Assembly (NCBI GenBank): GCA_963737905.1 | Contig: CAVTUQ010000025.1 | Coordinates: 192,001 to 256,000 of the forward strand | Length of the DNA stretch: 64,000 bases | Reading direction: 5' to 3' | Source: an uncultured delta proteobacterium | GTDB lineage: Bacteria; Desulfobacterota; Binatia; UBA9968 | Notes under the pieces: model-generated | Told to the model about the DNA's origin: nothing | Databases searched by the model: none | The model's input: only the letters and a program-made list of their open reading frames with translations | Part shown: positions 3,615 through 21,996 of the stretch, in pieces | Layout: every line of letters begins with the position of its first letter | Position numbering within the stretch: the stretch's first letter is position 1 | Program-made: the position numbers and the translations under genes

Positions 3615-4140
3615 AACCGTACGAATCCTGAACGCTCCGGACATTAAGACAAATCTAGAGCGTATGGCCCATTCAATCCTTCGTCAAAACAAAGCGTTGG
3701 ACTCGCTCGGATTTATCGGCATCCGGACCCGCGGCCTTTTCCTCGCCAAACGGCTGTGTGAGATTATAGAAAAGTCAAATGGCAAAGAAGTGCCCCTCGG
3801 AGAAATGGACATCACGCTATACCGAGATGATCTCAACGCTCTTCTGCCCCACGGCAAGGTGGATCACACGCAAATTCCCTTCGATATTAATAACAAGACG
3901 ATCATCTTATTTGACGACGTATTACACACAGGCCGGACGGTACGCGCGGCGGTAGACCATCTCATCGATCTAGGCCGCCCCAAAGCTATTCATCTTGCGG
4001 TGCTGATTGATCGCGGCGGACGTGAATTTCCCATCGCCGCCAGTTTCATCGGCAAGAAGATCAACTTACCAGGGAAGGGCGAGGTTCGATTGAAACTGAG
4101 GGAAGTAGATGGCAAAGACGAAGTCGTAGTCACCAGATAA
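3601..4140 (+). CDS. pyrR: Bifunctional pyrimidine regulator / uracil phosphoribosyltransferase
   Basis: GIRTRG, DITLYRDD, DDVLHTGRT and AVLIDRGGREFPI. Confidence 0.92.
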   Translation: MKRPKTVRILNAPDIKTNLERMAHSILRQNKALDSLGFIGIRTRGLFLAKRLCEIIEKSNGKEVPLGEMDITLYRDDLNALLPHGKVDHTQIPFDINNKTIILFDDVLHTGRTVRAAVDHLIDLGRPKAIHLAVLIDRGGREFPIAASFIGKKINLPGKGEVRLKLREVDGKDEVVVTR

Positions 4141-4238
4141 CGCCAATTCCATCTTTCCAGGAAACTGTTTCAAGTAGAAGTGAAAATCGAAAAGATCAAT
4201 GGCGATCTGGAACTGACAGAGCGAAAAACCGTCAACTA

Positions 4239-4940
4239 TCAGGCTACCCGTTCGAGAGTCATTCGACGTCTCAGAACTAAGGCCATGACGTCGCAGCCCT
4301 TACAGTGTGTCTCGATAAACCGACGAAGCGAAGCGAGTTCCACAGGCAAGAAGTATAGCGTACACCTCTCTGTGAGGGCATCGAGAACACTGCTATCAAC
4401 GGTCCCGTAAGAAATCGAGTCGTCCGTGTATGAGATTTCGCTTATTTGAATGCGACGTGGATCGAGGGTTTTCACCACTTCCTTGATCAATCCGATGAAC
4501 AAGTTGATCTTGTCATCATCGGGGCAAGTTGCGGGCGCCCAAGAAAAGTGATTTTTCATTTCTTTCTTAATTTCGTTTTCTTGAATCTCGACCGTTAGGT
4601 CCGTCTCTGTCAGGCGACCGCGAACGAATTCATAGCTCATGGGTTCCTGAATGCTCTTTCGCGAACGGCGCAGAATATAGCGGTCGTGACCGTTGGTCAC
4701 CTCGATATAACCGACACTCATGGGATCCAGTGGCGAGCCACCAGGGAAGAGTTTCTCGCCGCTAGCCCTTAGAGGTTCTAAGCGATGGCCAGCGTGTTGT
4801 GTCATAAACAACCGCCAATCATCGGTTTCCTGTGCTTCGACTGCATCACCTACAAAAACAAAAGCCGGAGCTTTATCAAACGGAGAAACGTGATGGATAG
4901 CGTCACAGACACAGCAATGGATAAACTTTTCGCTACCCAT
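4239..4940 (-). CDS. Hypothetical protein with CxxC...HxxH putative metal-binding motif
   Basis: 233-aa ORF overlapping the upstream kinase by 8 nt. Contains HCCVC near the N-terminus, HAGH and a C-terminal HCKGC. Confidence 0.75.
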   Translation of the reverse strand: MGSEKFIHCCVCDAIHHVSPFDKAPAFVFVGDAVEAQETDDWRLFMTQHAGHRLEPLRASGEKLFPGGSPLDPMSVGYIEVTNGHDRYILRRSRKSIQEPMSYEFVRGRLTETDLTVEIQENEIKKEMKNHFSWAPATCPDDDKINLFIGLIKEVVKTLDPRRIQISEISYTDDSISYGTVDSSVLDALTERCTLYFLPVELASLRRFIETHCKGCDVMALVLRRRMTLERVA

Positions 4941-6054
4941 ACTTGCGCTGCTCCGTGAGCAGGGGAGCCGCGACGCTCGCCTGGGAAGGAAATTTCATCA
5001 GGACGCGAGTGCCTCTGCCCGCTTCACTGTTGATTTCTAGCATTCCACCGATGAGCTCAGCCATCCGGCGCGCGACCGTGAGCCCTAAACCCAACCCGGC
5101 GAAGGAGCGGTGAGACGATGTATCGACCTGGTGAAATGGCTCAAAGATCGAGTCCATCTTATTTTTTTCTATACCGATCCCTGTGTCTGTAACTTCGAAC
5201 TCAATACTCGAATGGTCAGCCGTGGGACGAGCCTTGACTCTAATTTCCCCCTGAGCTGTGAATTTGATTGCGTTGTTAAAAACGTTCTGAAAGATCCTTT
5301 CGACCTTAGAGCGATCACTGACAATTGAAATTCCGGTATCAGCCATTTCAATCGAGAGCGCGAGTCCCTTCTCGGCCAGGATCCGCTCGTATCGCTTGAC
5401 CGCTTCACGCACGACTTCACGGGCGTCGAATTTTTCGATGGTTGCTGTCGCATCGCCGGCGTTGAGAGAAGTCATCCAGAGCACATTATCGATGAGTTCC
5501 AATAATTCCTCGGAGTTACGGTAGACGGTTTCCAAAACCTTTTGTTGCTCCTCGCTCAGTTTGCCAATCACCTGGTTCAGGAGCAGGTAAACAAAACCCA
5601 CCACCACACTCAGGGGAGTTCTCAGCTCATGTGAAATATTAGAGAGAAAATCCGATTTGACCTGTCTTAACTTGCTCTTCGCATTCCGGCGCTCAAGCCC
5701 GCGGCGAACCAGAGATAGGATGTGATTTACATCAAAAGGTTTGGAAATATAGTCAAATGCGCCCAGGCGCAACCCCTCGATCGCCGTATCCAAGGACCCA
5801 TACCCGGTGATGATTATTGCTTCGATATCCGGATCGTACTCCTTCAGCTTTTCGAGCACATGGATTCCTGAGACCCCGGGCATTTTGAGGTCCAACGTCA
5901 CGAGATCGACCGGAAACTTGCCGAGCATTTCAACTGCCTGTCCACCGCGCTCCGCAACGTGTACGTTATAATAGGGGTTGAGAATCATCTTTAATGATTC
6001 CCTGGGACCCATTTCGTCGTCGACAACAAGAATGTGAGGCTTGCTTGTATCCAT
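4933..6054 (-). CDS. Cytoplasmic hybrid response regulator / histidine kinase (REC-HisKA-HATPase)
   Basis: VVDDE, LDLKMP, SKPF; SHELRTPL; NNAIKF, DTGIG, GLGLGL. Confidence 0.93.
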   Translation of the reverse strand: MDTSKPHILVVDDEMGPRESLKMILNPYYNVHVAERGGQAVEMLGKFPVDLVTLDLKMPGVSGIHVLEKLKEYDPDIEAIIITGYGSLDTAIEGLRLGAFDYISKPFDVNHILSLVRRGLERRNAKSKLRQVKSDFLSNISHELRTPLSVVVGFVYLLLNQVIGKLSEEQQKVLETVYRNSEELLELIDNVLWMTSLNAGDATATIEKFDAREVVREAVKRYERILAEKGLALSIEMADTGISIVSDRSKVERIFQNVFNNAIKFTAQGEIRVKARPTADHSSIEFEVTDTGIGIEKNKMDSIFEPFHQVDTSSHRSFAGLGLGLTVARRMAELIGGMLEINSEAGRGTRVLMKFPSQASVAAPLLTEQRKYG

Positions 6055-6067
6055 GCCCGCGGCTTAC

Positions 6068-6083
6068 AGCAAGGAGCATGCCA
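6068..6083 (-). promoter_or_regulatory. Sigma54 (-24/-12) promoter
   Basis: Minus strand reads TGGCATGCTCCTTGCT, with GG and GC at canonical spacing. It lies just downstream of an NtrC-type activator gene. Confidence 0.8.
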
Positions 6084-6174
6084 ATGAATAGGAAAAGCCC
6101 AAATGACGAATTTACAAGCGTAATTTTAAGCCAAGGAAAGGAATAGAGAGAGTTAAGGGAACAATTTTGTCCAA

Positions 6175-7581
6175 TTAGGTCGATAATTTGACTTCCTCAC
6201 CCCCGTCATTAGGTTCGTGGATTTTTAGTTTCTCGATCCGGTACTTAAGAATACGACGGCTGGTTCCGAGAAGTGAAGCGGCTTTGGTCTGATTGAAGCC
6301 GGTTCGTTGGAGAGCCTTAACGATGAGTTCGCGTTCAAATTCGTCTACAGCTTCGCTTAACGGTTTCGAACCACTCAGTACATCCTCTTTGAGCGTCGCG
6401 GTCTGATCCGTGGAACGCATCCCCGCCGGCAGATCCCGCAACATGATCGTTTCGTGTGGCGTAAGGATCGTCAGCCTTTCGATCAGGTTCTCCAGTTCCC
6501 GAATATTTCCAGGCCAGTAGTACGATGTGAAAAAATCCACCACCTCCGGAGACAGGCTTTTGGGCGCCATAGAATGCTCTTGCGCCTTGAGTCTTAAGAA
6601 ATGATCCAAAAGCAGCGCTATGTCTTCGGGCCTTTCCCTCAGGGGAGGGAGGTAAAGCGAAACGACATTGAGCCGGTAGAAAAGATCAGGACGGAACTCC
6701 CCAGCCTTGGCCATCGTTTCCAAATCGCGATTACTGGCAGCGATAACTCGGACATCAACTTTGATTTCATCCGTGCCACCGAGACGGGTAAACGTTTCCT
6801 GCTCTATAGCGCGTAGGAACTTCGCCTGAGTCCCGAGATTGAGTTCACCGATTTCATCGAGAAAAAGCGTCCCCGCATGGGCGAGTTCGAAGCGACCTAC
6901 CTTCTTCTGCGAGGCGTTTGTAAAGGCGCCTTTCTCGTAGCCAAACAATTCACTCTCGATCAAAGTGTCGGGGAGAGCCGCGCAGTTCACCACAACGAAC
7001 GGCTTGGAGCGCCGATCACTATTGTAGTGAATCGCCCGTGCGATCAGCTCCTTCCCCGTTCCACTTTCGCCGGTAATCAGCACCGTGCTTTTTTTGGCCG
7101 CAACCATGCTGACCGCCTTAAACACATCGATGATCTGTTTGGATCGCCCGATGACGTGCTCAACCCCGTACTTGCGGCCGACTTCCTCCTTCAACCGCTC
7201 CAGTTCCCTGAATAAATGGACTTTCTCGAAAGCATGCTCGACTCGCAGGCGCAACTCCTCCACATCGAAGGGCTTGGTCACGTAATCGAAAGCCCCTGTG
7301 CCTTTGGCTGTAAAGGCCGTTCGCGCGGTGTTGAGAGCAGTCAACATGATGACCTGACAATCGGTATGGATCGACCTCATTTGTTTGAGGACGGCCAGAC
7401 CATCGGCACCCGGCATGACAATATCCAACAAAACTACGTCGGGTTTTTCATCCGCAAGCTTCTGAATCGCCTCGTCGGCCGATGTGGCTTCTAAGACACG
7501 ATAAAGCTTGTTAAAAACAAGCTGCAGCGATTGTCTCACTCCAGCCTCGTCATCGACGACTAGCAATAAGGGTTGGCTCAT
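6175..7581 (-). CDS. Sigma54-dependent response regulator (REC-AAA+-Fis HTH, NtrC/AtoC family)
   Basis: GESGTGKE, ESELFG, GAFTNA, LFLDE, FYRLNV, WPGNIREL and NQTKAASLLG. Confidence 0.95.
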   Translation of the reverse strand: MSQPLLLVVDDEAGVRQSLQLVFNKLYRVLEATSADEAIQKLADEKPDVVLLDIVMPGADGLAVLKQMRSIHTDCQVIMLTALNTARTAFTAKGTGAFDYVTKPFDVEELRLRVEHAFEKVHLFRELERLKEEVGRKYGVEHVIGRSKQIIDVFKAVSMVAAKKSTVLITGESGTGKELIARAIHYNSDRRSKPFVVVNCAALPDTLIESELFGYEKGAFTNASQKKVGRFELAHAGTLFLDEIGELNLGTQAKFLRAIEQETFTRLGGTDEIKVDVRVIAASNRDLETMAKAGEFRPDLFYRLNVVSLYLPPLRERPEDIALLLDHFLRLKAQEHSMAPKSLSPEVVDFFTSYYWPGNIRELENLIERLTILTPHETIMLRDLPAGMRSTDQTATLKEDVLSGSKPLSEAVDEFERELIVKALQRTGFNQTKAASLLGTSRRILKYRIEKLKIHEPNDGGEEVKLST

Positions 7582-7600
7582 TTCTCGCTTCTTTTCTAAT

Positions 7601-9493
7601 TCAAGCAATTAGGAACTCCATTTTCAAAAGGTCTTTTTCGGTGTCCGAATAGTCGAGGGTCATATGGCCGCCGTTGCGCTCGACCAGTTGTTTTGCGAGC
7701 AGGATGCGTAAGGAGAGTACGGTTTCGCTCGGGCTCGACGACGATTTATCGAAATAATGCGTGATCGACGCGACACGCCCCACTTCACGAAAATATGAGA
7801 TTGCAACGCATCCTTGTTTCTCGACGTTGATCTCAATTTCGCTTCCCATTTTTGCCTGCGACAGTACCGCCAACAGCACGTTCTTCAGAATGTACTTGAC
7901 CTGAGTTTCGTCGGCTTTAATTTCACGGCTATAGCCATTCCCTTTCCAAGTGATTTGGGCCTGCCTCCGGGCACATTCGTTGCTGAGTTCATTTAACGCT
8001 GAGCGAAGTTTTTCCTGCAACGCCACCTTGCTCCAACGGGGCTGCGCGAAGTCGGCAAACTCGATCATCAGCTCAAGCAGGTCATCCATCCGTTCGATAT
8101 CGCCGCCCACGACATCTTGGAAACGGGCCCGGAAATTCTCGTCCTGGTACCTGTCCGTTAGCAGCTGTGCAAAGGTTTTGATGGTGACCATCGGGTTCTT
8201 TAATTCATGGGCTAGCTCATGGATCAAAACGCTTAGGTCCTCTCTTTGGGCATGACTATTCTCTGTGCTAGCCTCCGCGTAGACGCCGTTAAGGGGTTGC
8301 GTCAGACTTTCGGCCCTATCGAGATCGCTTTTTTCTTGAACTTCTGAATGGACCAAGGCTTCAAACGCGGGGATCTCTGGCAATTCTCCCGGCGCCGAAA
8401 AATCGAAAATCAGATCGGCTGCTTCGACCCAGCTCTTCCGTTGCAAGGCCAGCGTCCGGGCGATGACTGTCTCCATTTCGTTTAAGTTTCCAAACCAAAG
8501 GTAGTTGCTGAGACGCTCGTTAGCACCTGCGGAAAGACTCACTTCTCCCAAGCCGAGATAGCTGGCATAAAACTGGCAAAACCAACTGGCGATTGCCGGT
8601 ATATCCTCCCGTCGCTCCCTTAGCGGCCGAAGCGACAATTTCAAGGTGGCGAGCTTATAATAAAGAGACTCCAATAACTCATCCCGATAAACTTTCTCCA
8701 AGATATCGACCCGCGCCGTTGTGATAAGACGGCACTTGCCGAATTTGGCTTCCTCTTCTTCTAAGAAATTCAAGAGTTCCGCCTGGCAGGCTAACGAAAG
8801 CCAATCGACATTCTCAATGATCAATGTAACCGGCGGCGCTTCGCTGCTACGACACCATGACAGTTGAAGGCTCTTTTGATCCAAATAGGCATTGTTGATC
8901 TCGGCCGCATTCAATGAAACCCAGCTACCGAAACGAGCCCCTAAAAAATGAATCCCACGGGCCACGCGTTCCTGACCGCAACCAATCTCCCCCGAGATCA
9001 AAATTGGCAAGCCGGTGACTGCAAACCGATGAACCAGGCTGGCCGCGGCTCGAGCAAGATAAGGGAATTCAAGGTACCGGGTAAACTCTCCTCGAGGCTC
9101 GACTCCAGGATGGTAAAGAGCCTCGGATAGAATGTTTCTGCGGGCTAAGAGTTGCCCCACCTTCTCTTTTAATTCATAGGGGCTAAAGGGCTTGGCTAAA
9201 CAGCCAACCCTTTCTCGGTCATCGATCGCCCTTGCAGCTGATTTCGAATCCACCAGAAACAAAACCGCGAAGGGCGCTTTGTCCGCAAATCTCAAGAGAC
9301 TAGAGGGCTCCTTCCCGATAGCTGGTGTGACGCCGAGAATTAGTAGGTCCACATCGCGGTCAGTTTCAGCAAACGAAAAGGCGCCTTTTCCAAAAGGCCT
9401 CTTTGCGACGACAAACTCCCGCCCCAAGATAAGGGCCAGGGTCTCCCGCACGACCTCAGACTCCTCAATGACTAAGATTCGCTTCGTTTGCAT
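7601..9493 (-). CDS. Fusion of degenerate receiver, degenerate sigma54-activator AAA+ domain, HisKA (DHp) and degenerate HATPase
   Basis: REC with LLILG in place of the phospho-Asp; ISGEIGCGQE; PLRERREDIP; WFGNLNEM; LAHELKNP; no G boxes. Confidence 0.8.
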   Translation of the reverse strand: MQTKRILVIEESEVVRETLALILGREFVVAKRPFGKGAFSFAETDRDVDLLILGVTPAIGKEPSSLLRFADKAPFAVLFLVDSKSAARAIDDRERVGCLAKPFSPYELKEKVGQLLARRNILSEALYHPGVEPRGEFTRYLEFPYLARAAASLVHRFAVTGLPILISGEIGCGQERVARGIHFLGARFGSWVSLNAAEINNAYLDQKSLQLSWCRSSEAPPVTLIIENVDWLSLACQAELLNFLEEEEAKFGKCRLITTARVDILEKVYRDELLESLYYKLATLKLSLRPLRERREDIPAIASWFCQFYASYLGLGEVSLSAGANERLSNYLWFGNLNEMETVIARTLALQRKSWVEAADLIFDFSAPGELPEIPAFEALVHSEVQEKSDLDRAESLTQPLNGVYAEASTENSHAQREDLSVLIHELAHELKNPMVTIKTFAQLLTDRYQDENFRARFQDVVGGDIERMDDLLELMIEFADFAQPRWSKVALQEKLRSALNELSNECARRQAQITWKGNGYSREIKADETQVKYILKNVLLAVLSQAKMGSEIEINVEKQGCVAISYFREVGRVASITHYFDKSSSSPSETVLSLRILLAKQLVERNGGHMTLDYSDTEKDLLKMEFLIA

Positions 9494-11633
9494 GAGCGCG
9501 CCCGTTGCTTAATTGACGAATCGGCTTACCCGTTGGCAAATTTATAAAAAATGTTGTTCCAACACCGACTTTACTCTCAACCGTGACAAATCCCCCATGT
9601 TCCTGGACAATTTGATGGGAAATCGAAAGCCCCAGGCCGCTACCCTCGTCTTTGCTGGTAAAAAATGGATCGAAGATATGGTCCAAGTTCTCGGCTGGAA
9701 TCCCTATCCCTGTATCGCGGACCTCAACTTGAACAAATTGGCCCGAGTGTCCTGCTTCGTCTCTGGAAATGAGTCGTGTGGATACGAAGATTGACCCACC
9801 CTCTCTCATTGCCTGGATGGCATTAAGTATAAGGTTCATAAATACCTGCTTCATCTGCTCCCTGTCAATCCAGACTCTAGGCAACCCCGGGCCAAAATCC
9901 CTTGTAATCTCAACACCTTTCTCCTTGGCCTCGCTCTCCAAGATACGCGCAATCCCGTCCACAACATCATTCATATTTTCTTCCGCGACATTGGGGCGCG
10001 ACGGCCGTGCAAAACTCAAGAGATCGTTGATCAAGCCGCAAATGCGATCCACCTCCTTCAGTGCAATGCCCTGAAATCCCTCACGAAATTCAGCGTCATT
10101 GTAACGCTCCGGCAAAAGCTGGGTGAAAGTCCGGATGGCGACTAAGGGATTGCGAATTTCGTGGGCGAGTCCGGCGGTAAGTAGTCCCAAAGAAGAAAGC
10201 CGGTCCGCCCGGCGGAGCGTATCCTGGGACTGCTTAAGGTTTTCATAGAGTCGAGCATTTTCTAAAGCAATAGCGGCCTGATTGGCTAAAGTGGACAAGA
10301 GTTCCAAATCTTCGCTAGAATAGATTTCCTTCTCCCGCTTGTGACCCAAATTGAGGATCCCGATAAGTTTCTCTTTGGAAATGATTGGCACGCTAATTTC
10401 TGCACCGAGTTCTCCCATTTTTTCCGCAACCTCGAGTCCAGAGACCCTATCCTGAGCCATTTCTAGTTCTTCCTTAACGACTCCCTCCTGGCTACCCGTC
10501 AGCCGCTGAATCAGTGGATCACTCTTCGAAAGCAAGGCTTGAAGGTATCCGTTTCTCTCCTGACCGATGTTTGCTTTGAGATTATAAACTCCCTTGGTCT
10601 CATCCAACAAATAAAAAGATGCGGTTTCAGTCCCCAGAGCCCGGCTAACCGTCTTCACCAGACTATTGGATAAATTTTCTAAATCGACGATAGATACCAT
10701 TTCCTTGCTGGAACGAAGAAGCGTTTCCCGGTAATTGACGCGTTTCTGGAAGAGAACTCTTTCCAATGCGTCTTCAGTCTTGAATCGAACCTTCGGAAAA
10801 AGAAATCCCACCATAATAAAAAGCATGAGGGTAACCATGGAGAACGTGTAATTGATACTGTCGAAAGCAAGCTTTTGCCCCCAAACAACCACGAGGAAAC
10901 AAGGAACTAAAAGTGCCGCCAATAGAAGTGCATAAATAAGACTCTTCCTGATTACGACCTCAATATCGAGGAGTCTGTACCGAGCGATGGCATATGTGAT
11001 CGGAGCTGTATAAAGATACGCTAACGGCGCTCCGAACGGCTGAATTCCAGCCTGAATTATTGGTAAGAACGACGTCCCTGCGCCCAGAAAGCCTATGAGA
11101 CTAGCGTAGATAGCATACCTCAGTTGATTCTTTCGAACTGGCAGATCGCTCCGTTTATACCCATCAATCAACCGATACAGTCCGTAAGAAGGGATTGAGA
11201 CATAAAGAACGAAATGCAAAATATAGGCTTTGGTAGGAATTTCGTAGAAGCCAAGCGAGGGATCGGCGCGTACTCCTCGTGTAAGAGCCCCATTAATTAA
11301 CAAAAGAAAATCTACGATCGCTGCGACGTACCCTGCCAGCAGCACCGCCCGGCTTTCATCCTCCTCTCCCAAAAGAGAAACGCAAAAATGAAGATAAACA
11401 GGAGGGACGAATATTGCGGAAAAATAGATCAGATACACAGTTTGCTCTGCAACATACCTCGTTTCAGCAATGGCAATCAGAAAACGGCCTGCGTGCCAAA
11501 CACTAATTGACAAGCACAGTAGAAACCAAGTTCGACGAACGATAGGTTTTGATTGCCCACGGTACAGGACAAATAGCCCTGCAAATAGGCTAAGAAAAGT
11601 TCCCAGAAGAAAGTTTACTTCGTACCAGGTCAT
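9465..11633 (-). CDS. Membrane sensor histidine kinase (multi-TM HisKA_7TM-like N-terminus, GAF, HisKA, HATPase)
   Basis: About 8-9 hydrophobic helices; GAF ending [15 protein letters not shown]; LAHEIRNPL; NLILNA, DTGIG, GSGLGL. Confidence 0.92.
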
Positions 11634-11635
11634 GT

Positions 11636-12895
11636 TTATGCGTCAAACTTCCGGATGACGCACGCGGCGTTGTGTCCCCCAAAGCCGCTTGAATTGGAAA
11701 GTATCGTTGAGATGCGCAAAGGTCTCCCGACATTCGGAACGTAATCCAGGTCGCATTCCGGATCCTTTGACGCTAAATTGATAGTAGGATGGACGTATTG
11801 ATTCTCCAGGGTTAAAGCGCACGCTACAAATTCCAAAGCGCCACAAGCACCCATGGTATGACCGACGATTGATTTGGTTGAATTTACTACTAAGCCGTAG
11901 GCGTGGCCACCGAAGGCTCTTTTGATTGCAAGTGTCTCGATCTTGTCATTAAGAACTGTGCCACTACCATGAGCGTTCACATAGTCAATCTCCTTTGGCA
12001 TTACACCAGCATCTGCTAAAGCCTTTAGCATTGCTTTGGCTCCAAATTCAGCCGACGGTAGCGGCTGCAGCTCGTGGTAACTATCAAAGGTAGCAGCATA
12101 GCCTAAGATCTCGCCGTATATTTTTGCTAGGCGTCGCTGCGCGTGCTCAAGTTCCTCTAAGATTACCAAGGCTGCCCCTTCTGCCAGTACGGTGCCGTTT
12201 CGATCCTTGCTGAACGGACGGCACGCCTTGGTCGGTTGATCATTCTCAGTCGATAGGATCCCCGCGGAAGAAAAGGTAGCTATAGCCAAAGGTGTGATCG
12301 GAGCCTCAGAAGCTCCGGCAATAGCAATATCAAAACTGCCATCCCTGATGGAGCGAAAAGCTTCTCCAATAGCGCTAGTTCCAGACGCACATGCGCTTGT
12401 AATTGTTGAGACTGACCCATGTATCCCCAACGCCTTGCCAATTTGGGCTGGGCACGAGCTTGGGAGAGCACTGTGATTAAAAAAAGGAGGGATTCGTCTC
12501 AAGCCTTTCGTAACGAAAAGCGAGTGAATTTCCTCTGCCTGAGAAAACGCACCCAAGGAAGTCCCAAGGACAACACAGGTTCTTTCTCGATCGCAAGAAT
12601 CAAACTGTCTCGTTAGATCTGCATCCTCCCAGGCAAGTTTTCCAGCAGCCAAGCCTAGAAGAGAAAACCTACTCAGGCGACGGGTTAGCTCATAGGGATG
12701 AAAGGCGTGAGGGTCGAAATCCTCCATCTGTCCTGCAATCCTTACGGGATATGTCTCAGCATCGAAACTCGTGATAGGGCGGATTCCTGAGCGGCCGTGT
12801 TTCAATGCGTCCCAAAACTGCGCCTTCCCGATTCCCACTGAGGACAGAATACCCAAGCCAGTGATCACAACCCTACGACGATTAGGTAACGTCAC
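11636..12895 (-). CDS. Beta-ketoacyl-ACP synthase II-like ketosynthase (FabF family)
   Basis: RRVVITGLG; Cys-His-His triad in TSACASG, NAHGSGT and KSIVGH; NSSGFGG. AGGAG RBS before GTG. Confidence 0.93.
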   Translation of the reverse strand: MTLPNRRRVVITGLGILSSVGIGKAQFWDALKHGRSGIRPITSFDAETYPVRIAGQMEDFDPHAFHPYELTRRLSRFSLLGLAAGKLAWEDADLTRQFDSCDRERTCVVLGTSLGAFSQAEEIHSLFVTKGLRRIPPFFNHSALPSSCPAQIGKALGIHGSVSTITSACASGTSAIGEAFRSIRDGSFDIAIAGASEAPITPLAIATFSSAGILSTENDQPTKACRPFSKDRNGTVLAEGAALVILEELEHAQRRLAKIYGEILGYAATFDSYHELQPLPSAEFGAKAMLKALADAGVMPKEIDYVNAHGSGTVLNDKIETLAIKRAFGGHAYGLVVNSTKSIVGHTMGACGALEFVACALTLENQYVHPTINLASKDPECDLDYVPNVGRPLRISTILSNSSGFGGHNAACVIRKFDA

Positions 12896-13034
12896 ACGTT
12901 GCTCCTAATAGTTCTTAAACCAGGGAATGGCTAACGTAATAAAGAATCGGCTGTTAAATTTTCGCGCGAGTCGTTTTACTCTAATAGTCTGAGAATTAGG
13001 ACTAGGGATTTTCATAACCGTACCGTTGCTGCCG

Positions 13035-13214
13035 TCAGGATTCAATGTTCGAGTTCTTTCTCAACCAATCGTCGATCAAATTCTGCTTGAAACGCCATTG
13101 ACTCCCTACTTTAAAGGCGGGTATTTTTTTTTGGGTGACTAATCGATAAACGGTGAACTTGTCTACCCTTAAATATTGGGCAACTTGGTCGATTGTCAGG
13201 AGTTTCTCTTGCAT
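13035..13214 (-). CDS. Small excisionase-like HTH DNA-binding protein (HTH_17/BldC-like)
   Basis: LLTIDQVAQYLRVDKFTVYRLV...IPAFKVGSQWRF...IDDWL. Confidence 0.9.
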   Translation of the reverse strand: MQEKLLTIDQVAQYLRVDKFTVYRLVTQKKIPAFKVGSQWRFKQNLIDDWLRKNSNIES

Positions 13215-13225
13215 AATCATGCCCT

Positions 13226-13246
13226 TTATGACAGTTTCTGTCATAA
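13226..13246. promoter_or_regulatory. Perfect palindrome TTATGACAG-TTT-CTGTCATAA, putative operator
   Basis: 9-3-9 inverted repeat in the divergent HTH/ACP intergenic region. Confidence 0.65.
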
Positions 13247-13315
13247 TCTTTGCACTGTTTGCTTTCTTTTGATAGCCATATATAACAGATAGCAAATTGA
13301 GTCAAACTACCCACA

Positions 13316-13582
13316 GTGACCCCGGATAAATCAAAATCTGTCGAGGAAAACCTTAAGGAATTGATCGCTCAGGAGTTCGGGGTGGACCGGTCCAGAATAT
13401 CTCGTCACTCCAAAGTTAAGGAATTAGGGCGAGACTCCTTAGCGTTGTTAGAGCTCCTAGCTACAGTCGAAATTCAATTTGAGATTTCAATTCCAGACGA
13501 AGAAGCAACAAAAATATCATCCTTTGAATCACTGGTTCATTCAATAGAAAAGCATCTAGAGATGAAGTCAGACTCGACATGA
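13316..13582 (+). CDS. Acyl carrier protein
   Basis: LGRDSLALLEL phosphopantetheine Ser motif; FEISIPDEEA. Confidence 0.9.
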   Translation: MTPDKSKSVEENLKELIAQEFGVDRSRISRHSKVKELGRDSLALLELLATVEIQFEISIPDEEATKISSFESLVHSIEKHLEMKSDST

Positions 13583-14856
13583 AGGAAAGACGAGTAGTTG
13601 TCACTGGAACCGGATTAATTACTCCCTTTGGTATTGGCCGGAGAAAATTTTGGGACGCAATTAGATCAGGATGTTCAGGAATTTCTAAGATTCGTCAATT
13701 TGACTCGTCTCAGTTGAAGTGCCAAATCGCTGGGGCCTGCCACGACTTTGATCCGGCTTTTTTTTTTCTGGATCCGGACGATTTTCGCAGGATGGATCGA
13801 GTTTCCCAATTTGCTGTAGCGGCTGGATCCTTAGCCGTCAGAGAAAGTGGACTATGTAAGAACAGCTGCGACACTGGTGTTATAATCGGAACAGGGCTTG
13901 GCGGAATAACAACCGATGATGTGCAACATGCATTACTGCACGCAAAGGGAGCAAGGTTCGTTCAACCCACAGCCATTCCGATGATTATGTACAATGCTGC
14001 GGCGAGCCATATTTCTAGCCGTTTCGGCTTCAAAGGGCCAGGGTACACCATTACAACTGCGTGCGCGTCAGGCACACAAGCCATCGGAGAGGCTTACAGA
14101 CTAATTAAACACGGCTATACTCATACTATGATTGCTGGGGGCGCAGACGCACCATTAAGTTTTGGAATTTTCAGCGCGTGGTGTGCTTTGAGAATTCTCT
14201 CAACGAGAAACAGCGATCCCACAACTGCTTGCAGGCCATTTAGCCAGGATAGAGATGGCATGGTCTTAGCCGAAGGCGCAGGCATTGTGGTTCTAGAGGA
14301 ATTACAACATGCTATGAATCGATTCTCACCTATACATGCAGAGGTTATTGGCTATGGTTCGAGTAACGATGCATATCATATCACGCATCCGGACGTGGAC
14401 GGAGAGGCCGAAGCGATAAAAAATGCCATGAAAGATGCCGGACTCGCTCCGAACGATATAGATTATATAAACGCACACGGTACGGGTACAAAAATAAATG
14501 ATTTGGCCGAGACAGCAGCAATCAAAAAGGTGTTCGAGAAGCGAGCATACTCTGTTCCTATAAGCTCTACAAAGTCGATGATCGGACATGCTATGGGTGG
14601 TGCCGGCGCAATAGAATTCATAGTTTGCTGCCTATCGCTCCAACATGATCTTATCCCGCCCACTATAAACTACTACGTTCGTGACCCCGAATGTGACCTC
14701 GACTACGTACCAAATGTTGCTAGGGCGGAGTCACTTGATATAGCCATGTCCAACTCCTTTGGCTTCGGAGGCACGAACGCGGTTCTTATTCTCAAAAAGC
14801 TTTCACAGAATTTGGACGTTGCGGTCGCTCATAGGCCAAATCCGACACCGTCATAA
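13579..14856 (+). CDS. Beta-ketoacyl-ACP synthase II-like ketosynthase (FabF family)
   Basis: RRVVVTGTG; TACASG, NAHGTGT, KSMIGH; NSFGFGG. 4-nt overlap with the ACP gene. Confidence 0.94.
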   Translation: MKERRVVVTGTGLITPFGIGRRKFWDAIRSGCSGISKIRQFDSSQLKCQIAGACHDFDPAFFFLDPDDFRRMDRVSQFAVAAGSLAVRESGLCKNSCDTGVIIGTGLGGITTDDVQHALLHAKGARFVQPTAIPMIMYNAAASHISSRFGFKGPGYTITTACASGTQAIGEAYRLIKHGYTHTMIAGGADAPLSFGIFSAWCALRILSTRNSDPTTACRPFSQDRDGMVLAEGAGIVVLEELQHAMNRFSPIHAEVIGYGSSNDAYHITHPDVDGEAEAIKNAMKDAGLAPNDIDYINAHGTGTKINDLAETAAIKKVFEKRAYSVPISSTKSMIGHAMGGAGAIEFIVCCLSLQHDLIPPTINYYVRDPECDLDYVPNVARAESLDIAMSNSFGFGGTNAVLILKKLSQNLDVAVAHRPNPTPS

Positions 14857-15108
14857 GTCTACTGGAGCTCTTGTCGAACTGAGCTTCAAGACGGAGGATG
14901 CGGCTGCCCGTTTTAACTGGCTTTAATTCTGGTTCGTCCTGCTACTTCCAGGTTCTCGTTCTTGTCCGACCAGTAAGTCGTTAATTTCTTCAAGTTTTGG
15001 GTTTTCGAACGTGTGGTAGTTTAGCAAAATTTTCTTGCACCGATGCGGTTGTTATGACATCATTTAGCAACAATTAGCAGCCTTATAGCAAAATTGGAGA
15101 AAGTCTGG

Positions 15109-16398
15109 ATGAACCTATACAATTGGTTTCGAATTTTCGCTTTAGTACTTGCTACAATCACCCCCAGAGTGGCCTTTCCGGGTGGATTCATGCTGCCTTA
15201 CCAGACCGCAAGAGGCCTTGCCTTGTCAAACGCGCTCACCGCTGGCATTGATGATCCGTCAGCCGTATTTTATAACCCTGCCGGTTTGGGGGAGGTAACT
15301 GGAAATCAACTTTTGATCAACGGGACTTATATAAATGCCCAAAACAGCGTCGAAAACAGCGGGAGAAAAGTTACAAACAAACATGACAACAACTTCCTCG
15401 CAACTTTTTTTGCGAACTATCACATCCCAGGCACTGATTTCACCCTCGGGATAGGCACCTATACCCCGTTCGGACTCGCGACAGAATATGGAAATGATAC
15501 TTTCACTCGTTTTGCTGCAATCGATACGGAGCTAAAAACCATTTATGTCACGCCTGCTTTGTCTTGGAAACCATCAAATTATTTTTCTTTCGGTGCCGGG
15601 CTGAGTTTTGTTCATTCTTCGGAAGTTGTTTCTAGAGCATTGTGCTTCGATCCCATTTCCGGTTGTACGCAGCCTTTAGGTCTCGAAGGAAAAGTTCGAA
15701 TTACTGACACAGCAGATGCGTTCGCTTATAACCTTGGCTTCCTTGTTAAACCTACGGAGAATCTCAAGTTCGGATTTAGCTACAGATCACGGGTCGACCT
15801 GCGATTCGATAACGCCGATGCAAAGTTCGGAGGCTCGTTCTCGATCCCAACGGTGAAGAGCAATGTCAGACCATTGCCGCTTCCTCCAGTTATTAACGCC
15901 GGACTCTTTTGGCAAATTACTCCTTCATGGGGCGCCGAGTTTGTCTATGAGTACACGCGATGGAGCGAAGTTAAGAGTCTCAGCGCAAGTTTTTCCCCAA
16001 TACCTTTATTTCTACCACTCGGCGTACCAGTATCTGGTTTCAGTTCACCTCAGGAATGGAAAAATACTAGCACCTTACGATTTGGCAGTTTTTACCGGTT
16101 CGACGATAGATGGGAAATACGAGGAGGAATAGGTTTAGAAGAAACACCAATTCCAAACCGAACGCTCAGCCCTGCCATTCCAGGCGCCGACCTTTTTACC
16201 CTTAATACTGGAGTGGGCTACAAATGGCATAGTATGACTGTCGATCTCGGCTATACTGCGGTGTTTTACCAAACACGTCGAATAACTAACTCCGAGCTAG
16301 AAGGACTTACAGGCATACCATTTCTAGGCGCGCCAGGAAAAGATAAATACCAAAACTTCGGAAACCTGGTGTCTCTCACGTTGGGATACCGTTTCTAG
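15109..16398 (+). CDS. OmpP1/FadL family outer-membrane hydrophobic-compound channel
   Basis: Signal peptide, GGF...ARGLALSNA, DDPSAVFYNPAGL hatch motif, C-terminal GYRF. GGAGA RBS. Confidence 0.9.
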   Translation: MNLYNWFRIFALVLATITPRVAFPGGFMLPYQTARGLALSNALTAGIDDPSAVFYNPAGLGEVTGNQLLINGTYINAQNSVENSGRKVTNKHDNNFLATFFANYHIPGTDFTLGIGTYTPFGLATEYGNDTFTRFAAIDTELKTIYVTPALSWKPSNYFSFGAGLSFVHSSEVVSRALCFDPISGCTQPLGLEGKVRITDTADAFAYNLGFLVKPTENLKFGFSYRSRVDLRFDNADAKFGGSFSIPTVKSNVRPLPLPPVINAGLFWQITPSWGAEFVYEYTRWSEVKSLSASFSPIPLFLPLGVPVSGFSSPQEWKNTSTLRFGSFYRFDDRWEIRGGIGLEETPIPNRTLSPAIPGADLFTLNTGVGYKWHSMTVDLGYTAVFYQTRRITNSELEGLTGIPFLGAPGKDKYQNFGNLVSLTLGYRF

Positions 16399-20526: not shown

Positions 20527-21996
20527 GTGCCCATCCCTTCCATGAAAACTAACTCGAAATCACCCGCGCTACAGACAGCAGAAAGGGACAGTATCATCGT
20601 CTGTCAAACCAGCCAGGGCTACAGCGTCCGGGCAACCCCGCTTCGCATCACACGCGATGTGGTCGCTTTTGAGGTCTATAATCCATATAGCATCCTCCAG
20701 CTCTCCGAGGTTCTACAAGAATTCAGAATCATCGTTAATGAAAAGTTGATTTATTCGGGACGTGCAACGGTCAGCAATCTTCTGAACATAGGCATCATGC
20801 TGGTCTGCGAGGCCACACTAGACGAGGGCTGGCTCGAGGTGGATCTTTTCGCCCTGGTCACTCAGCCGAAAAGATTACGGGCTGATTTCATCGATTTTCT
20901 CAAGGAGTGGGAGAGGATCAACATCATTTTGCCTGAGTACAAGGTAGTCTTGGCCGATATACAGAACTATTTTATCGATCTCAACCGTTGGCTGGAGCAG
21001 GTAGAGTTAGGAATCCGCTCCTCATCCTCCCTCGATCGGCGAAAAATGGAGCTCGAGGTCATCCAAACGTTGGCGCCGACTATCCTACCTTCCATCGATA
21101 CCCTCTTTACAAGGTTCGAAGAGATCGCCGACAAAGTACCCGACGAACTCCTGCCGTTCCATAGGACCTACGCCAAACGGCAGCTCCATCCGCAGGTCCT
21201 CTGCTCGCCCTTCGCATACCGCACGTACCATAAGCCGCTTGGGTACGCCGGTGATTACGAAACAGTGAACATGATTCTGCGAGAGCCCCTGGAAGGGAGC
21301 TCGATGTTTGCCAAGACAATAAACACGTGGTTACTGAAACAACCTTCAGCGGAGGCGCATCGAAATCGGATCAAGTATCTCACCGCGCAACTCGTCAAAG
21401 AAACACATCGCATCGCTCAGCAAGGCTCGATCGCCCAAATTTTTAGTATCGGATGCGGACCGGCCGGAGAGGTAAAGAATTTCCTGATTCAAGAAGAGCT
21501 GTCTAACAAGGCCCGCTTCACGTTGTTAGACTTCAACGATGAAACGCTCCAGCATACGGCCAAGGTGCTCGACGAAGCCAAACAACAGCACCATCGCAGC
21601 ACCGAGATCGAGATGGTCAAGAAATCGGTCCATCAGATCCTCAAGGAAGCAGGCAAACAACCGGTAGATCAGAAGTATGATCTTATTTATTGCGCTGGCC
21701 TTTTCGATTATCTCTCGGATCGTGTTTGCAAGAGACTCATGAATATCCTGTACGATATGCTCGCCCCCTATGGTCTTCTCTTGGCAACCAATGTTCATGC
21801 GTCCAATCCCAACCGTAATAGCATGGATTTTTTTCTGGAGTGGCACCTTGTTCATCGAAACCACGCGCAATTGGAGCACCTCAAACCTGATCTCGCGCCC
21901 GAGGGAAGCTTTAGCGAAAACCAGGAAGTGACGGGCGTTAACATCTTTATCGAGGTAAGAAAGCCCAGTGAAACAAGCCATCTGGAACGATCCTGA
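20527..21996 (+). CDS. PhcB-like class I SAM-dependent methyltransferase (3-hydroxy fatty acid methyl ester synthase family)
   Basis: KPLGYAGDY, AHRNRI, SIGCGP, LLDFN, CAGLFDYL and LEWHLVHR. Followed by a kinase and a REC-kinase gene, as in phcBSR. Confidence 0.78.
   Translation: MPIPSMKTNSKSPALQTAERDSIIVCQTSQGYSVRATPLRITRDVVAFEVYNPYSILQLSEVLQEFRIIVNEKLIYSGRATVSNLLNIGIMLVCEATLDEGWLEVDLFALVTQPKRLRADFIDFLKEWERINIILPEYKVVLADIQNYFIDLNRWLEQVELGIRSSSSLDRRKMELEVIQTLAPTILPSIDTLFTRFEEIADKVPDELLPFHRTYAKRQLHPQVLCSPFAYRTYHKPLGYAGDYETVNMILREPLEGSSMFAKTINTWLLKQPSAEAHRNRIKYLTAQLVKETHRIAQQGSIAQIFSIGCGPAGEVKNFLIQEELSNKARFTLLDFNDETLQHTAKVLDEAKQQHHRSTEIEMVKKSVHQILKEAGKQPVDQKYDLIYCAGLFDYLSDRVCKRLMNILYDMLAPYGLLLATNVHASNPNRNSMDFFLEWHLVHRNHAQLEHLKPDLAPEGSFSENQEVTGVNIFIEVRKPSETSHLERS

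Follow-up and report, generated by a model that had tools for sequence, protein, structure and literature searches.

A candidate modular sigma54 signalling locus with an exchangeable sensor cassette and a co-inherited ketosynthase in uncultured deltaproteobacteria

The DNA analyzed here, hereafter the window, is a stretch of 64,000 nucleotides from the genome of an uncultured delta proteobacterium (assembly GCA_963737905.1, contig CAVTUQ010000025.1, positions 192,001 to 256,000 of the forward strand). Between positions 4239 and 16398 it encodes a membrane sensor kinase, an NtrC-type sigma54 activator, a fusion protein that we call pseudoEBP, a second kinase (RECHK) and a protein of 233 residues (hyp233), together with two FabF-type ketosynthases (KS1 and KS2), an acyl carrier protein (ACP) and a FadL-family channel. 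Having compared this locus with its counterparts in related genomes, we read it as one allele of a sigma54 signalling locus that is modular and is conserved in an uncultured deltaproteobacterial (Desulfobacterota-type) family; in this reading as a whole, including the mechanism proposed below, we place moderate confidence. The features of the locus, each with the evidence for its assignment, are the following.

4239-4940, minus strand: hyp233, 233 aa, of no known family or fold (open reading frame (ORF) list)
4933-6054, minus strand: RECHK, a REC-HisKA-HATPase kinase, first gene of the sigma54-driven pair (Pfam; kept in relatives)
6068-6083, minus strand: sigma54 -24/-12 promoter, TGGCAT-N5-TTGCT (pattern search and conservation)
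6158-6172, minus strand: near-palindrome, a candidate activator binding site (conserved in close relatives; binding is putative)
6175-7608, minus strand: NtrC/AtoC-type sigma54 activator with REC, AAA+ and HTH_8 domains (Pfam, NCBIfam)
7601-9493, minus strand: pseudoEBP, 630 aa, a REC-like/AAA+/HisKA fusion with a degenerate catalytic and ATP-binding (CA) domain (Pfam, alignment, profile search)
9465-11633, minus strand: sensor kinase with HisKA_7TM, GAF, HisKA and HATPase domains (Pfam, NCBIfam)
11636-12895, minus strand: KS1, a FabF-like ketosynthase (Pfam, NCBIfam, alignment, tree)
13035-13295, minus strand: small DNA-binding HTH_17 protein (excisionase/MerR-like), first gene of the operon (Pfam, NCBIfam)
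13190-13330, no strand: first copy of a spacer-like sequence (alignment A3)
13316-13582, plus strand: divergent ACP with the serine of a DSL motif (Pfam, NCBIfam)
13579-14856, plus strand: KS2, a FabF-type ketosynthase of a third lineage (NCBIfam, alignment, tree)
14990-15100, no strand: second copy of the spacer-like sequence, upstream of FadL (alignment A3)
15094-16398, plus strand: FadL/TodX-family outer-membrane channel (Pfam, NCBIfam)

According to the ORF list, KS1 and the sensor kinase are separated by 2 nt, the kinase overlaps pseudoEBP by 29 nt, pseudoEBP overlaps the activator by 8 nt, and the start of hyp233 overlaps the stop of RECHK by another 8 nt. The true start of the HTH_17 gene is probably an ATG inside the listed ORF, and FadL likely starts at the ATG at 15109, also internal to its listed frame. 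To the left, the locus is bordered by two phosphoribosyltransferase-domain proteins and an M20 peptidase; to the right come GlnRS and GluRS. The genome amounts to 6.7 Mb in 46 contigs and is 87% complete; the locus lies on its contig C25. A preliminary description of the window had listed the same genes and domains, with the first ketosynthase 2 nt from the kinase and the kinase overlapping the fusion, and the ORF list, Pfam and NCBIfam bear this out. Its "hybrid kinase" indeed joins a kinase to a receiver, which sits at the N terminus, and its "degenerate REC-AAA+-DHp fusion" is confirmed, with the addition of a degenerate CA domain that had been missed.

Orthologues of pseudoEBP were found in 22 of 24 genomes of the same family (two as fragments only; 20 of 22 when two genomes flagged as unpublished are set aside), in two of five genomes of a second family and in none of 11 of a third. 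All carriers of the locus are metagenome-assembled genomes of uncultured bacteria from soil, sediment and groundwater, and their record labels are inconsistent (Deltaproteobacteria, Candidatus Binatia, Syntrophobacteraceae, Thermodesulfobacteriota). Synteny is kept across 20 fetched loci, mapped by tblastn, and 79 loci from public genome contigs, in the fixed order GluRS, GlnRS and FadL, followed divergently by the HTH gene, a variable stretch, pseudoEBP, the activator, RECHK, sometimes hyp233, the phosphoribosyltransferase and the peptidase. The invariant core consists of pseudoEBP, the NtrC-type activator, the sigma54 promoter and RECHK. In a distant high-GC clade (L116-L124), pseudoEBP, activator, RECHK and hyp233 stand between MeaB/metallophosphoesterase genes and a ThiF-rhodanese gene.

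Taken alone, the promoter pattern at 6068-6083 is not above chance, with 40 matches in the window against 28 expected at up to two mismatches. An equivalent site, with GG and GC doublets 10 nt apart, lies in the spacer between activator and RECHK in 20 of 20 loci, the other letters of the spacer varying, and the site in the window has this doublet spacing, precedes a gene and adjoins the activator gene, as expected of a sigma54-dependent promoter. The promoter and relay of the preliminary description are thus real and conserved. No sigma54-like site precedes FadL, ACP, the HTH gene or KS1 in the FadL-HTH and HTH-KS1 intervals, and RECHK-hyp233 is therefore the sole visible sigma54 output in the locus. 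A motif in the HTH-FadL spacer of relatives was considered as a further sigma54 promoter and rejected, since in alignment A3 its GG and GC doublets seem, by eye, to be separated by 9 nt where 10 are required. The distance from the -12 element to the ATG of RECHK is 13-16 nt in the window's sub-lineage (about 13 nt in the window itself) and 23-56 nt elsewhere, which suggests that the sigma54 transcript of RECHK is nearly leaderless in this sub-lineage.

The near-palindrome at 6158-6172, which directly follows the stop codon of the activator gene and is kept in close relatives, may bind the activator. No second credible copy of it was found across the window or the genome. With up to two mismatches, the candidate site has 19 matches in the genome, compared to 11 for a control pattern; the two that were inspected (with one and two mismatches) lie inside long ORFs, with no sigma54-like site within 400 bp. 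The sigma54-contact loop of the activator reads GAFTNA in 30 of 35 sequences, the window's among them, GAFTHA in two and GSFTDA in three, and the canonical GAFTGA in none.

The most unusual member of the core is pseudoEBP. A profile built from 19 orthologues matches, at positions 4-374, the receiver and AAA+ domains of NtrC-family activators of solved structure and, at positions 406-620, the dimerization and histidine phosphotransfer (DHp) and CA domains of ZraS- and ThkA-type kinases. All catalytic features except one have been lost. The position of the receiver's acceptor Asp is occupied by glycine (Gly54) in at least 90% of the 19 sequences, by our own reading of alignment A1, so that it does not qualify as a receiver; Lys101 is kept even though the acceptor Asp is gone. 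The Walker A motif reads G-x-G-Q, with an invariant Gln174 in place of the Lys, Walker B reads Glu-Asn, the region of the GAFTGA loop is missing and there is no HTH_8 domain, and the protein is thus not an active bacterial enhancer-binding protein by these features. Compared with the neighbouring sensor kinase, it has also lost the second Asn of the N box and the G1 and G2 boxes of a histidine kinase, and no Pfam HATPase_c match was found in it. The H box is intact, with an invariant His429 followed by Glu at +1 and Asn at +4, in a DHp domain closely similar to that of the neighbouring kinase. A His box of this form supports phosphotransfer as well as phosphatase activity in HisKA kinases. These features point to a connector that would act by contact, through its His, or both: as a phosphatase of the activator, as a shuttle resembling ChpT or Spo0B, or as a NifL-like anti-activator. 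Proteins that join a dead sigma54 activator and a dead histidine kinase in one chain and keep the phospho-His box form a family that is unnamed in the family libraries and appears undescribed in the full-text literature searched, from which subscription journals and supplements fell outside the scope.

Upstream of this core, the locus varies. The sensor kinase in the window, whose residues 1-282 hold at least seven hydrophobic segments, is of a type that we call the 7TM-GAF kinase. In the 36 loci that have a complete kinase and can be read for at least 1.4 kb upstream of it, the stretch between the HTH gene and pseudoEBP takes four forms: KS1 with a 7TM-GAF kinase in 15, the 7TM-GAF kinase alone in eight, a 492-aa protein with a 7TM-GAF kinase in two, and, in 11, VTC-domain protein(s), a major facilitator superfamily (MFS) transporter and a phosphonate-type binding protein with a Cache/HAMP kinase. 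The window itself has the arrangement HTH-KS1-7TM/GAF kinase. Its nearest relative, a member of the same genus that is 95% identical over pseudoEBP and activator, has the Cache cassette and lacks hyp233, and on a tree of pseudoEBP and activator the kinase type switches at least eight times. The DNA upstream of the core is therefore an exchangeable cassette of enzyme or transport genes plus sensor kinase that is swapped even within one genus. Such an exchange of "enzyme + sensor kinase" cassettes before a fixed relay likewise has no name in the family libraries and appears undescribed in the literature searched. The HTH_17 gene stands ahead of three of the four cassette types; no match to it was found ahead of the kinase-alone locus L091.

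The Cache cassette, present in the same-genus relative (L040/L046), in L029 and in others, comprises one or two VTC-domain proteins, the MFS transporter and the phosphonate-type periplasmic binding protein; this content suggests a phosphate- or polyphosphate-related input to the same relay. The 492-aa protein, which looks cytoplasmic, replaces KS1 before the 7TM-GAF kinase in three loci (L086 at 4737-6215, L055 and L059); neither a Pfam family nor an Atlas match was found for it. In L032 (G029:C7), an IS3-type insertion sequence (IS), with a transposase HTH and an rve integrase, occupies positions 6343-7529 where the 7TM part of the kinase would lie, and the remaining kinase is broken into two frames.

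The variation at this end of the locus is matched at the other. Of the 31 loci that can be read at both ends, 14 have KS1 and all of these have hyp233, as does one of the 17 that lack KS1. On the pseudoEBP and activator tree, KS1 requires a minimum of nine state changes and hyp233 of eight, and across seven independent contrasts in KS1, hyp233 changed in the same direction in six to seven and in the opposite direction in none (sign test, p 0.016-0.031). Genome-wide, hyp233 was found in 16 of 41 genomes, the window's included, and on the same contig as pseudoEBP wherever that contig is known; in G014 and G023, whose assemblies are fragmented, it is on another contig. A genome-wide search did not find it in the Cache-cassette genomes G001, G004, G009 and G016, which are 93-100% complete. 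KS1 and hyp233 are thus gained and lost together. Replacement of a single block fails to explain this pattern, because the two genes mark the two ends of the locus, with about 7 kb and a nearly unchanged core between them. The comparison supports a tie of the ketosynthase KS1 to the output end of the relay, in the form of hyp233, rather than to FadL or ACP.

The same observations bear on a simpler view, in which KS1, ACP-KS2 and FadL are ordinary lipid genes at a recombination-prone spot and the relay has its targets elsewhere. The cassette position is indeed a replacement hot spot, with an insertion sequence in one locus, the flanking genes (GluRS, GlnRS and FadL; phosphoribosyltransferase and M20 peptidase) are kept regardless of the cassette, and, with RECHK behind the only sigma54 promoter of the locus, the relay must have further targets. 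Mere proximity does not account for the joint gain and loss of two genes at opposite ends of a nearly unchanged core, however, nor for KS1 being a paralogue clade of this position (see below) instead of a copy of the housekeeping FabF. We therefore regard this view as rather unlikely.

In hyp233 itself, Cys9, Cys12, His49 and His52, which form a CxxC...HxxH motif, are invariant in the 30 sequences of alignment A2. No Pfam or NCBIfam model matches the protein, and its 284 relatives in a large protein collection all lack a Pfam domain and, wherever a source names them, are called "hypothetical protein". An AlphaFold 2 model is confident, with a pLDDT (predicted local distance difference test) of 88.5. 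A Foldseek search against the Protein Data Bank (PDB) gave no match at E <= 0.001; in a fold search of all against representatives, the best Z score was 5.9, for part of the C-terminal half and within the noise range of the tool. The ESM Atlas yielded no usable match, and a profile search against PDB sequences found nothing below E 0.3. A complex prediction for KS1 and hyp233 scored 0.15, with the mark at 0.32, which is evidence neither for nor against their contact. Contigs from four soil and freshwater DNA runs cover the window from 4000 to 10735 and little further, the uncovered remainder being uninformative. One contig of run X6 omits 4136-4927, a stretch that nearly coincides with hyp233; with a likeness of 85%, it offers at most a weak hint that some relative lacks the gene.

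Both ketosynthases retain the residues expected of active enzymes. Cys169, His309, His346 and Lys341 are invariant in all 19 aligned ketosynthases (KS1, 16 orthologues, KS2 and the housekeeping FabF), in agreement with the Cys-His-His triad noted in the preliminary description. On the fabF model TIGR03150, KS1 scores 478.6 bits and falls under the equivalog cut-off of 493.75, which KS2 exceeds with 518.8 (518.6 in a second scan); KS1 passes the broader subfamily model NF005589 (466 vs 387). KS1 and KS2 are 45 and 49% identical, respectively, to the housekeeping FabF of the genome, and in a phylogeny set against that enzyme each falls in a clade of its own. In the KS1 tree, 14 of 17 sequences form one supported clade apart from the housekeeping FabF. 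The genome contains six FabF-like genes, of which the best (639 bits) is beside FabH on contig C26, two are in an aryl-polyene-like cluster on C22 and one is on C4; acpP and fabD are on C22 and fabZ on C7, all away from contig C25. In agreement with the preliminary description, the locus is not the housekeeping fatty-acid synthesis operon. Had KS1 and KS2 been the genome's only FabF copies, the earlier proposal would have been undone; both are instead additional to the housekeeping enzyme.

KS1 is a distinct FabF paralogue of a locus-specific clade. About 90 clusters in the large protein collection are at least 57% identical to it, after which identity drops to 52%. FabH comes after the best FabF (C26:14609-15832, L125), and a gene of the histone-deacetylase family before it; with acpP and fabD on a different contig, the housekeeping fatty-acid genes are dispersed. 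An aryl-polyene-like cluster at C22:66000-84000 (L127) has an MMPL-type exporter, a DUF3261 protein, two ketosynthase-like genes, a ketoreductase and a phosphopantetheinyl transferase.

P0049 and P0082, metagenome proteins of 533-537 aa, each join an N-terminal receiver to a complete FabF and have the acceptor Asp region as well as the catalytic Cys and His motifs; we found no description of such fusions in the literature searched. They show that a FabF-type enzyme can be linked straight to two-component signalling, which fits KS1 as an output of the relay or as an input to it. In the latter case, the acylation state of KS1 would report the acyl-ACP or malonyl-ACP pool to the 7TM-GAF kinase, and hyp233 would reset KS1. 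Apart from the natural receiver-FabF fusions, such an arrangement could draw on the gap of 2 nt between KS1 and kinase in the window and on the faster evolution of KS1 than of its neighbours (38-64% identity among relatives vs 69-96% for the activator), with the catalytic residues kept. In mapped relatives, however, the gap is roughly 20-110 nt between the ends of tblastn matches, the kinase also occurs without KS1, and no evidence of contact between the two proteins was found. Among the explanations weighed here, we would give this one the least credence.

ACP and KS2 do not belong to the conserved system: the pair was found in none of the 79 related loci, none of the 20 fetched loci and none of 40 genomes of relatives. 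ACP is short and could have escaped the E-value threshold used; KS2 could not. The best KS2 match in the 40 genomes is 50-51% identical and is their housekeeping FabF. In a collection of 5.8 billion proteins, KS2 has seven clusters of relatives at 70-79% identity, and the remainder, at or below 59%, are partly labelled Thermodesulfovibrionales or Nitrospirae; in the tree it groups with relatives from this collection, apart from KS1 and the housekeeping FabF. A metagenome scan with back-translated KS2 patterns, which amount to generic FabF motifs, returned only relatives at about 50% and missed those at 70-79%. Some KS2-like metagenome proteins and hyp233-like or KS1-like ones are listed with equal longest-contig sizes (13,343, 35,127 and 13,022), which suggests, circumstantially, that a few closer uncultured relatives carry KS2 at the same locus. 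ACP scores 54.3-55 bits on the acpP model TIGR00517, under its cut-off of 70.45, and 40 on the PP-binding Pfam family (vs 20.8), and has the Asp-Ser-Leu motif.

In relatives, the spacer between the HTH gene and FadL is short and conserved, and a sequence resembling it occurs twice in the window (alignment A3). The first copy (13190-13330) lies mostly within the listed HTH frame and ends at the start of ACP; the second (14990-15100) contains three copies of a 13-nt repeat and precedes FadL. The GC fraction is 0.43-0.48 across 13-17 kb, compared with 0.47-0.56 over the rest of the first 22 kb. Because KS2 has no match above 51% identity in the 40 related genomes, spacer-like sequence lies on both sides and GC is low, we conclude that ACP-KS2 is a recent, lineage-specific insertion into the HTH-FadL spacer, and it was probably added to the FadL-side transcription unit in the window's lineage. 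ACP and FadL may share regulation, since the spacer-like sequence precedes both.

FadL matches PF03349 over profile positions 7-421 of 421 with 203.7 bits (gathering threshold 29.7) and misses the equivalog model of E. coli FadL (93.2 vs 585). It is encoded divergently from the HTH gene with all four cassette types (for example in L047, L056, L086 and L046), including those without a ketosynthase, and is therefore a constant neighbour of the locus that is not tied to the ketosynthases; no FadL match was found in one Cache locus, L104. An aryl-polyene cluster or a rhizobial very-long-chain lipid A cluster was considered as a model for two ketosynthases and an ACP, and rejected in the absence of a dehydratase, reductase, acyltransferase or exporter in the locus.

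These results bear directly on the central proposal of the preliminary description, in which KS1, KS2 and ACP make a diffusible lipid that re-enters through FadL and is sensed by the 7TM-GAF kinase, in a loop resembling quorum sensing. Lipid signals read by multi-pass kinases are known, an example being diffusible signal factor (DSF) and RpfC. In three of the four cassette types the gene immediately before the sensor kinase codes for an enzyme, KS1 lies next to the kinase and on the same strand wherever KS1 is found, both ketosynthases are catalytically intact by their residues, and the spacer-like sequence with its 13-nt repeat before FadL has a relation before ACP. Across relatives, however, synthase, carrier, channel and receptor are not conserved together. 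The relay core and FadL are kept. Of the 25 loci with a 7TM-GAF kinase and readable DNA upstream of it, 15 have KS1 immediately before the kinase; in the other ten the kinase occurs without KS1, so that a KS1 product is not an obligatory ligand. ACP and KS2, which the proposal counted as parts of the circuit, are missing from all the relatives compared, and FadL, its uptake part, flanks the locus whatever the cassette. The locus offers a lone FabF-type enzyme with no partner for release, tailoring or export, and, with no sigma54 site before FadL, ACP or KS1, there is no visible feedback onto synthesis or uptake. Nothing in the comparison argues for a diffusible signal. The quorum-sensing proposal is thus largely unsupported, and we judge it very unlikely.

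The reading that we favour, a modular relay whose output protein hyp233 acts on KS1-dependent elongation, could work as follows. The 7TM-GAF membrane kinase would phosphorylate the activator. The pseudoEBP would tune this phosphorylation as a phosphatase, a phosphotransfer protein or an anti-activator; by its residues it could neither hydrolyze ATP nor be phosphorylated on Asp, but it keeps the His-Glu-x-x-Asn box. The activated regulator would then fire the sigma54 promoter to produce RECHK, a second-tier kinase, and hyp233, which would act on or with KS1. In this way, the relay would serve membrane or lipid homeostasis by adjusting a dedicated step of fatty-acyl elongation, and would not read a secreted signal. 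On the comparisons above we hold this to be somewhat more probable than improbable. A narrower version, in which KS1 and hyp233 form a two-part lipid switch, appears unlikely to us; here, the sigma54-induced zinc-motif protein would bind or modify the FabF paralogue, the kinase would retune elongation post-translationally or, in a closed loop, sense the lipid of KS1, and pseudoEBP, as a connector of a new kind, would set the gain of the loop.

Several observations weigh against the favoured reading. The link between KS1 and hyp233 is a statistical one, and the proposed order of phosphotransfer is deduced solely from how the genes are arranged and which families they resemble. Three of the KS1 sequences group away from the main KS1 clade, on a long branch of their own, and both trees were built by a quick method. 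G029 keeps hyp233 in its IS-broken locus with no KS1 beside it, and L055 has a hyp233-like gene together with the 492-aa protein in place of KS1. A distant clade, at about 30% identity and with one record labelled Polyangiaceae, has pseudoEBP, activator, RECHK and hyp233 with no ketosynthase or upstream kinase within 10 kb. In addition, a short paralogue (118-128 aa) of the N-terminal half of hyp233 follows another GAF kinase and NtrC-type activator. In view of this paralogue, hyp233 may be a general accessory of sigma54 systems rather than a partner of the ketosynthase. It may also be that the N-terminal zinc-motif half is the general accessory and the C-terminal half the part specific to KS1.

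One paralogue of the N-terminal half, at G000:C26:225408-225725 (L222 6385-6771), follows genes for MtrC-like and c-type cytochromes behind a sigma54-like site; another, in a relative of the same genus (G002:C158:32454-32789, L223 6434-6790), is next to a phosphopantetheinyl transferase gene. In those loci of the distant clade that reach far enough, a thiolase-like protein of about 600 aa is encoded about 2 kb downstream of hyp233. Further along the window (20527-24652), a protein of 489 aa that has a weak methyltransferase domain precedes one of 894 aa that combines two HisKA/HATPase sets with a receiver.

If the pairing of KS1 and hyp233 is functional, it would be a new coupling of bacterial signalling to fatty-acid elongation, and the receiver-FabF fusions point the same way. 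Comparison alone has divided the gene neighbourhood into a signalling core that is conserved, a sensor cassette that can be swapped, an insertion specific to the lineage, and a bystander. As all carriers are uncultured bacteria of soil, sediment and groundwater, the value of the reading for now is that of a testable hypothesis.

Known systems that come close to the locus include the AtoS/AtoC and NtrB/NtrC-type pairs, where a HisKA/HATPase kinase is encoded next to a REC-AAA+-HTH_8 activator and there is a -24/-12 promoter. Of the NCBIfam models, AtoS fits the kinase core best and AtoC the activator, yet both scores stay far under the equivalog cut-offs (259.2 vs 646 and 489.5 vs 714, respectively). 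Unlike these pairs, the locus has a 7TM-GAF module as sensor and a dead activator/kinase fusion between the two genes, and its visible target is a second kinase with hyp233 instead of catabolic genes. The kinase also resembles PrsK of the PEP-CTERM/exosortase regulators PrsK/PrsR in its multi-pass N terminus, GAF domain and kinase core, with TIGR02916 aligned nearly end to end, and the activator matches the PrsR model TIGR02915. Neither reaches its cut-off (156.2 vs 300 for the kinase and 402.6 vs 502.6 for the activator), and family scans revealed no exosortase or PEP-CTERM genes in the locus.

For pseudoEBP, the closest parallels are functional ones. In PspA-PspF, a sigma54-induced protein controls the activator by contact. 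In NifL-NifA, the subject of PMC12998190, a kinase-like protein controls the activator by contact and not by phosphorylation. Such control would be a plausible model of pseudoEBP, or else of hyp233 in the role of a feedback factor. Unlike their proteins, pseudoEBP is half activator (REC-like and dead AAA+) and half kinase (DHp and dead CA) and keeps the phospho-acceptor His box, and unlike NifL it has no PAS domain or flavin module. ChpT and Spo0B combine a DHp helix pair that bears a conserved His with a CA-like domain that no longer binds ATP. They resemble pseudoEBP by family description, not by a comparison of sequence or fold, and are without a REC-AAA+ half; the likeness of pseudoEBP to NifL or to ChpT/Spo0B is at most one of analogy.

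A link between lipid enzymes and membrane kinases is known from DSF/Rpf, where a lipid-pathway enzyme is encoded beside a multi-pass sensor kinase, and from DesK-DesR, where a membrane kinase governs an enzyme that modifies acyl chains. Unlike the Rpf and DesK systems, the locus has no crotonase-type synthase, HD-GYP regulator or desaturase; its enzyme is of the condensing FabF type, encoded upstream of the kinase and outside the visible output promoter. KS1 and KS2 share the fold and the Cys-His-His-Lys set of housekeeping FabF. The literature searched describes no FabF gene in a sigma54 two-component operon, and the co-inheritance of a FabF paralogue with a small CxxC...HxxH protein appears, within that literature, to be undescribed. 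Measured against these systems, the logic of the relay is ordinary, and what appears undescribed in it is the dead activator-kinase chimera, the exchange of cassettes and the pairing of KS1 with hyp233.

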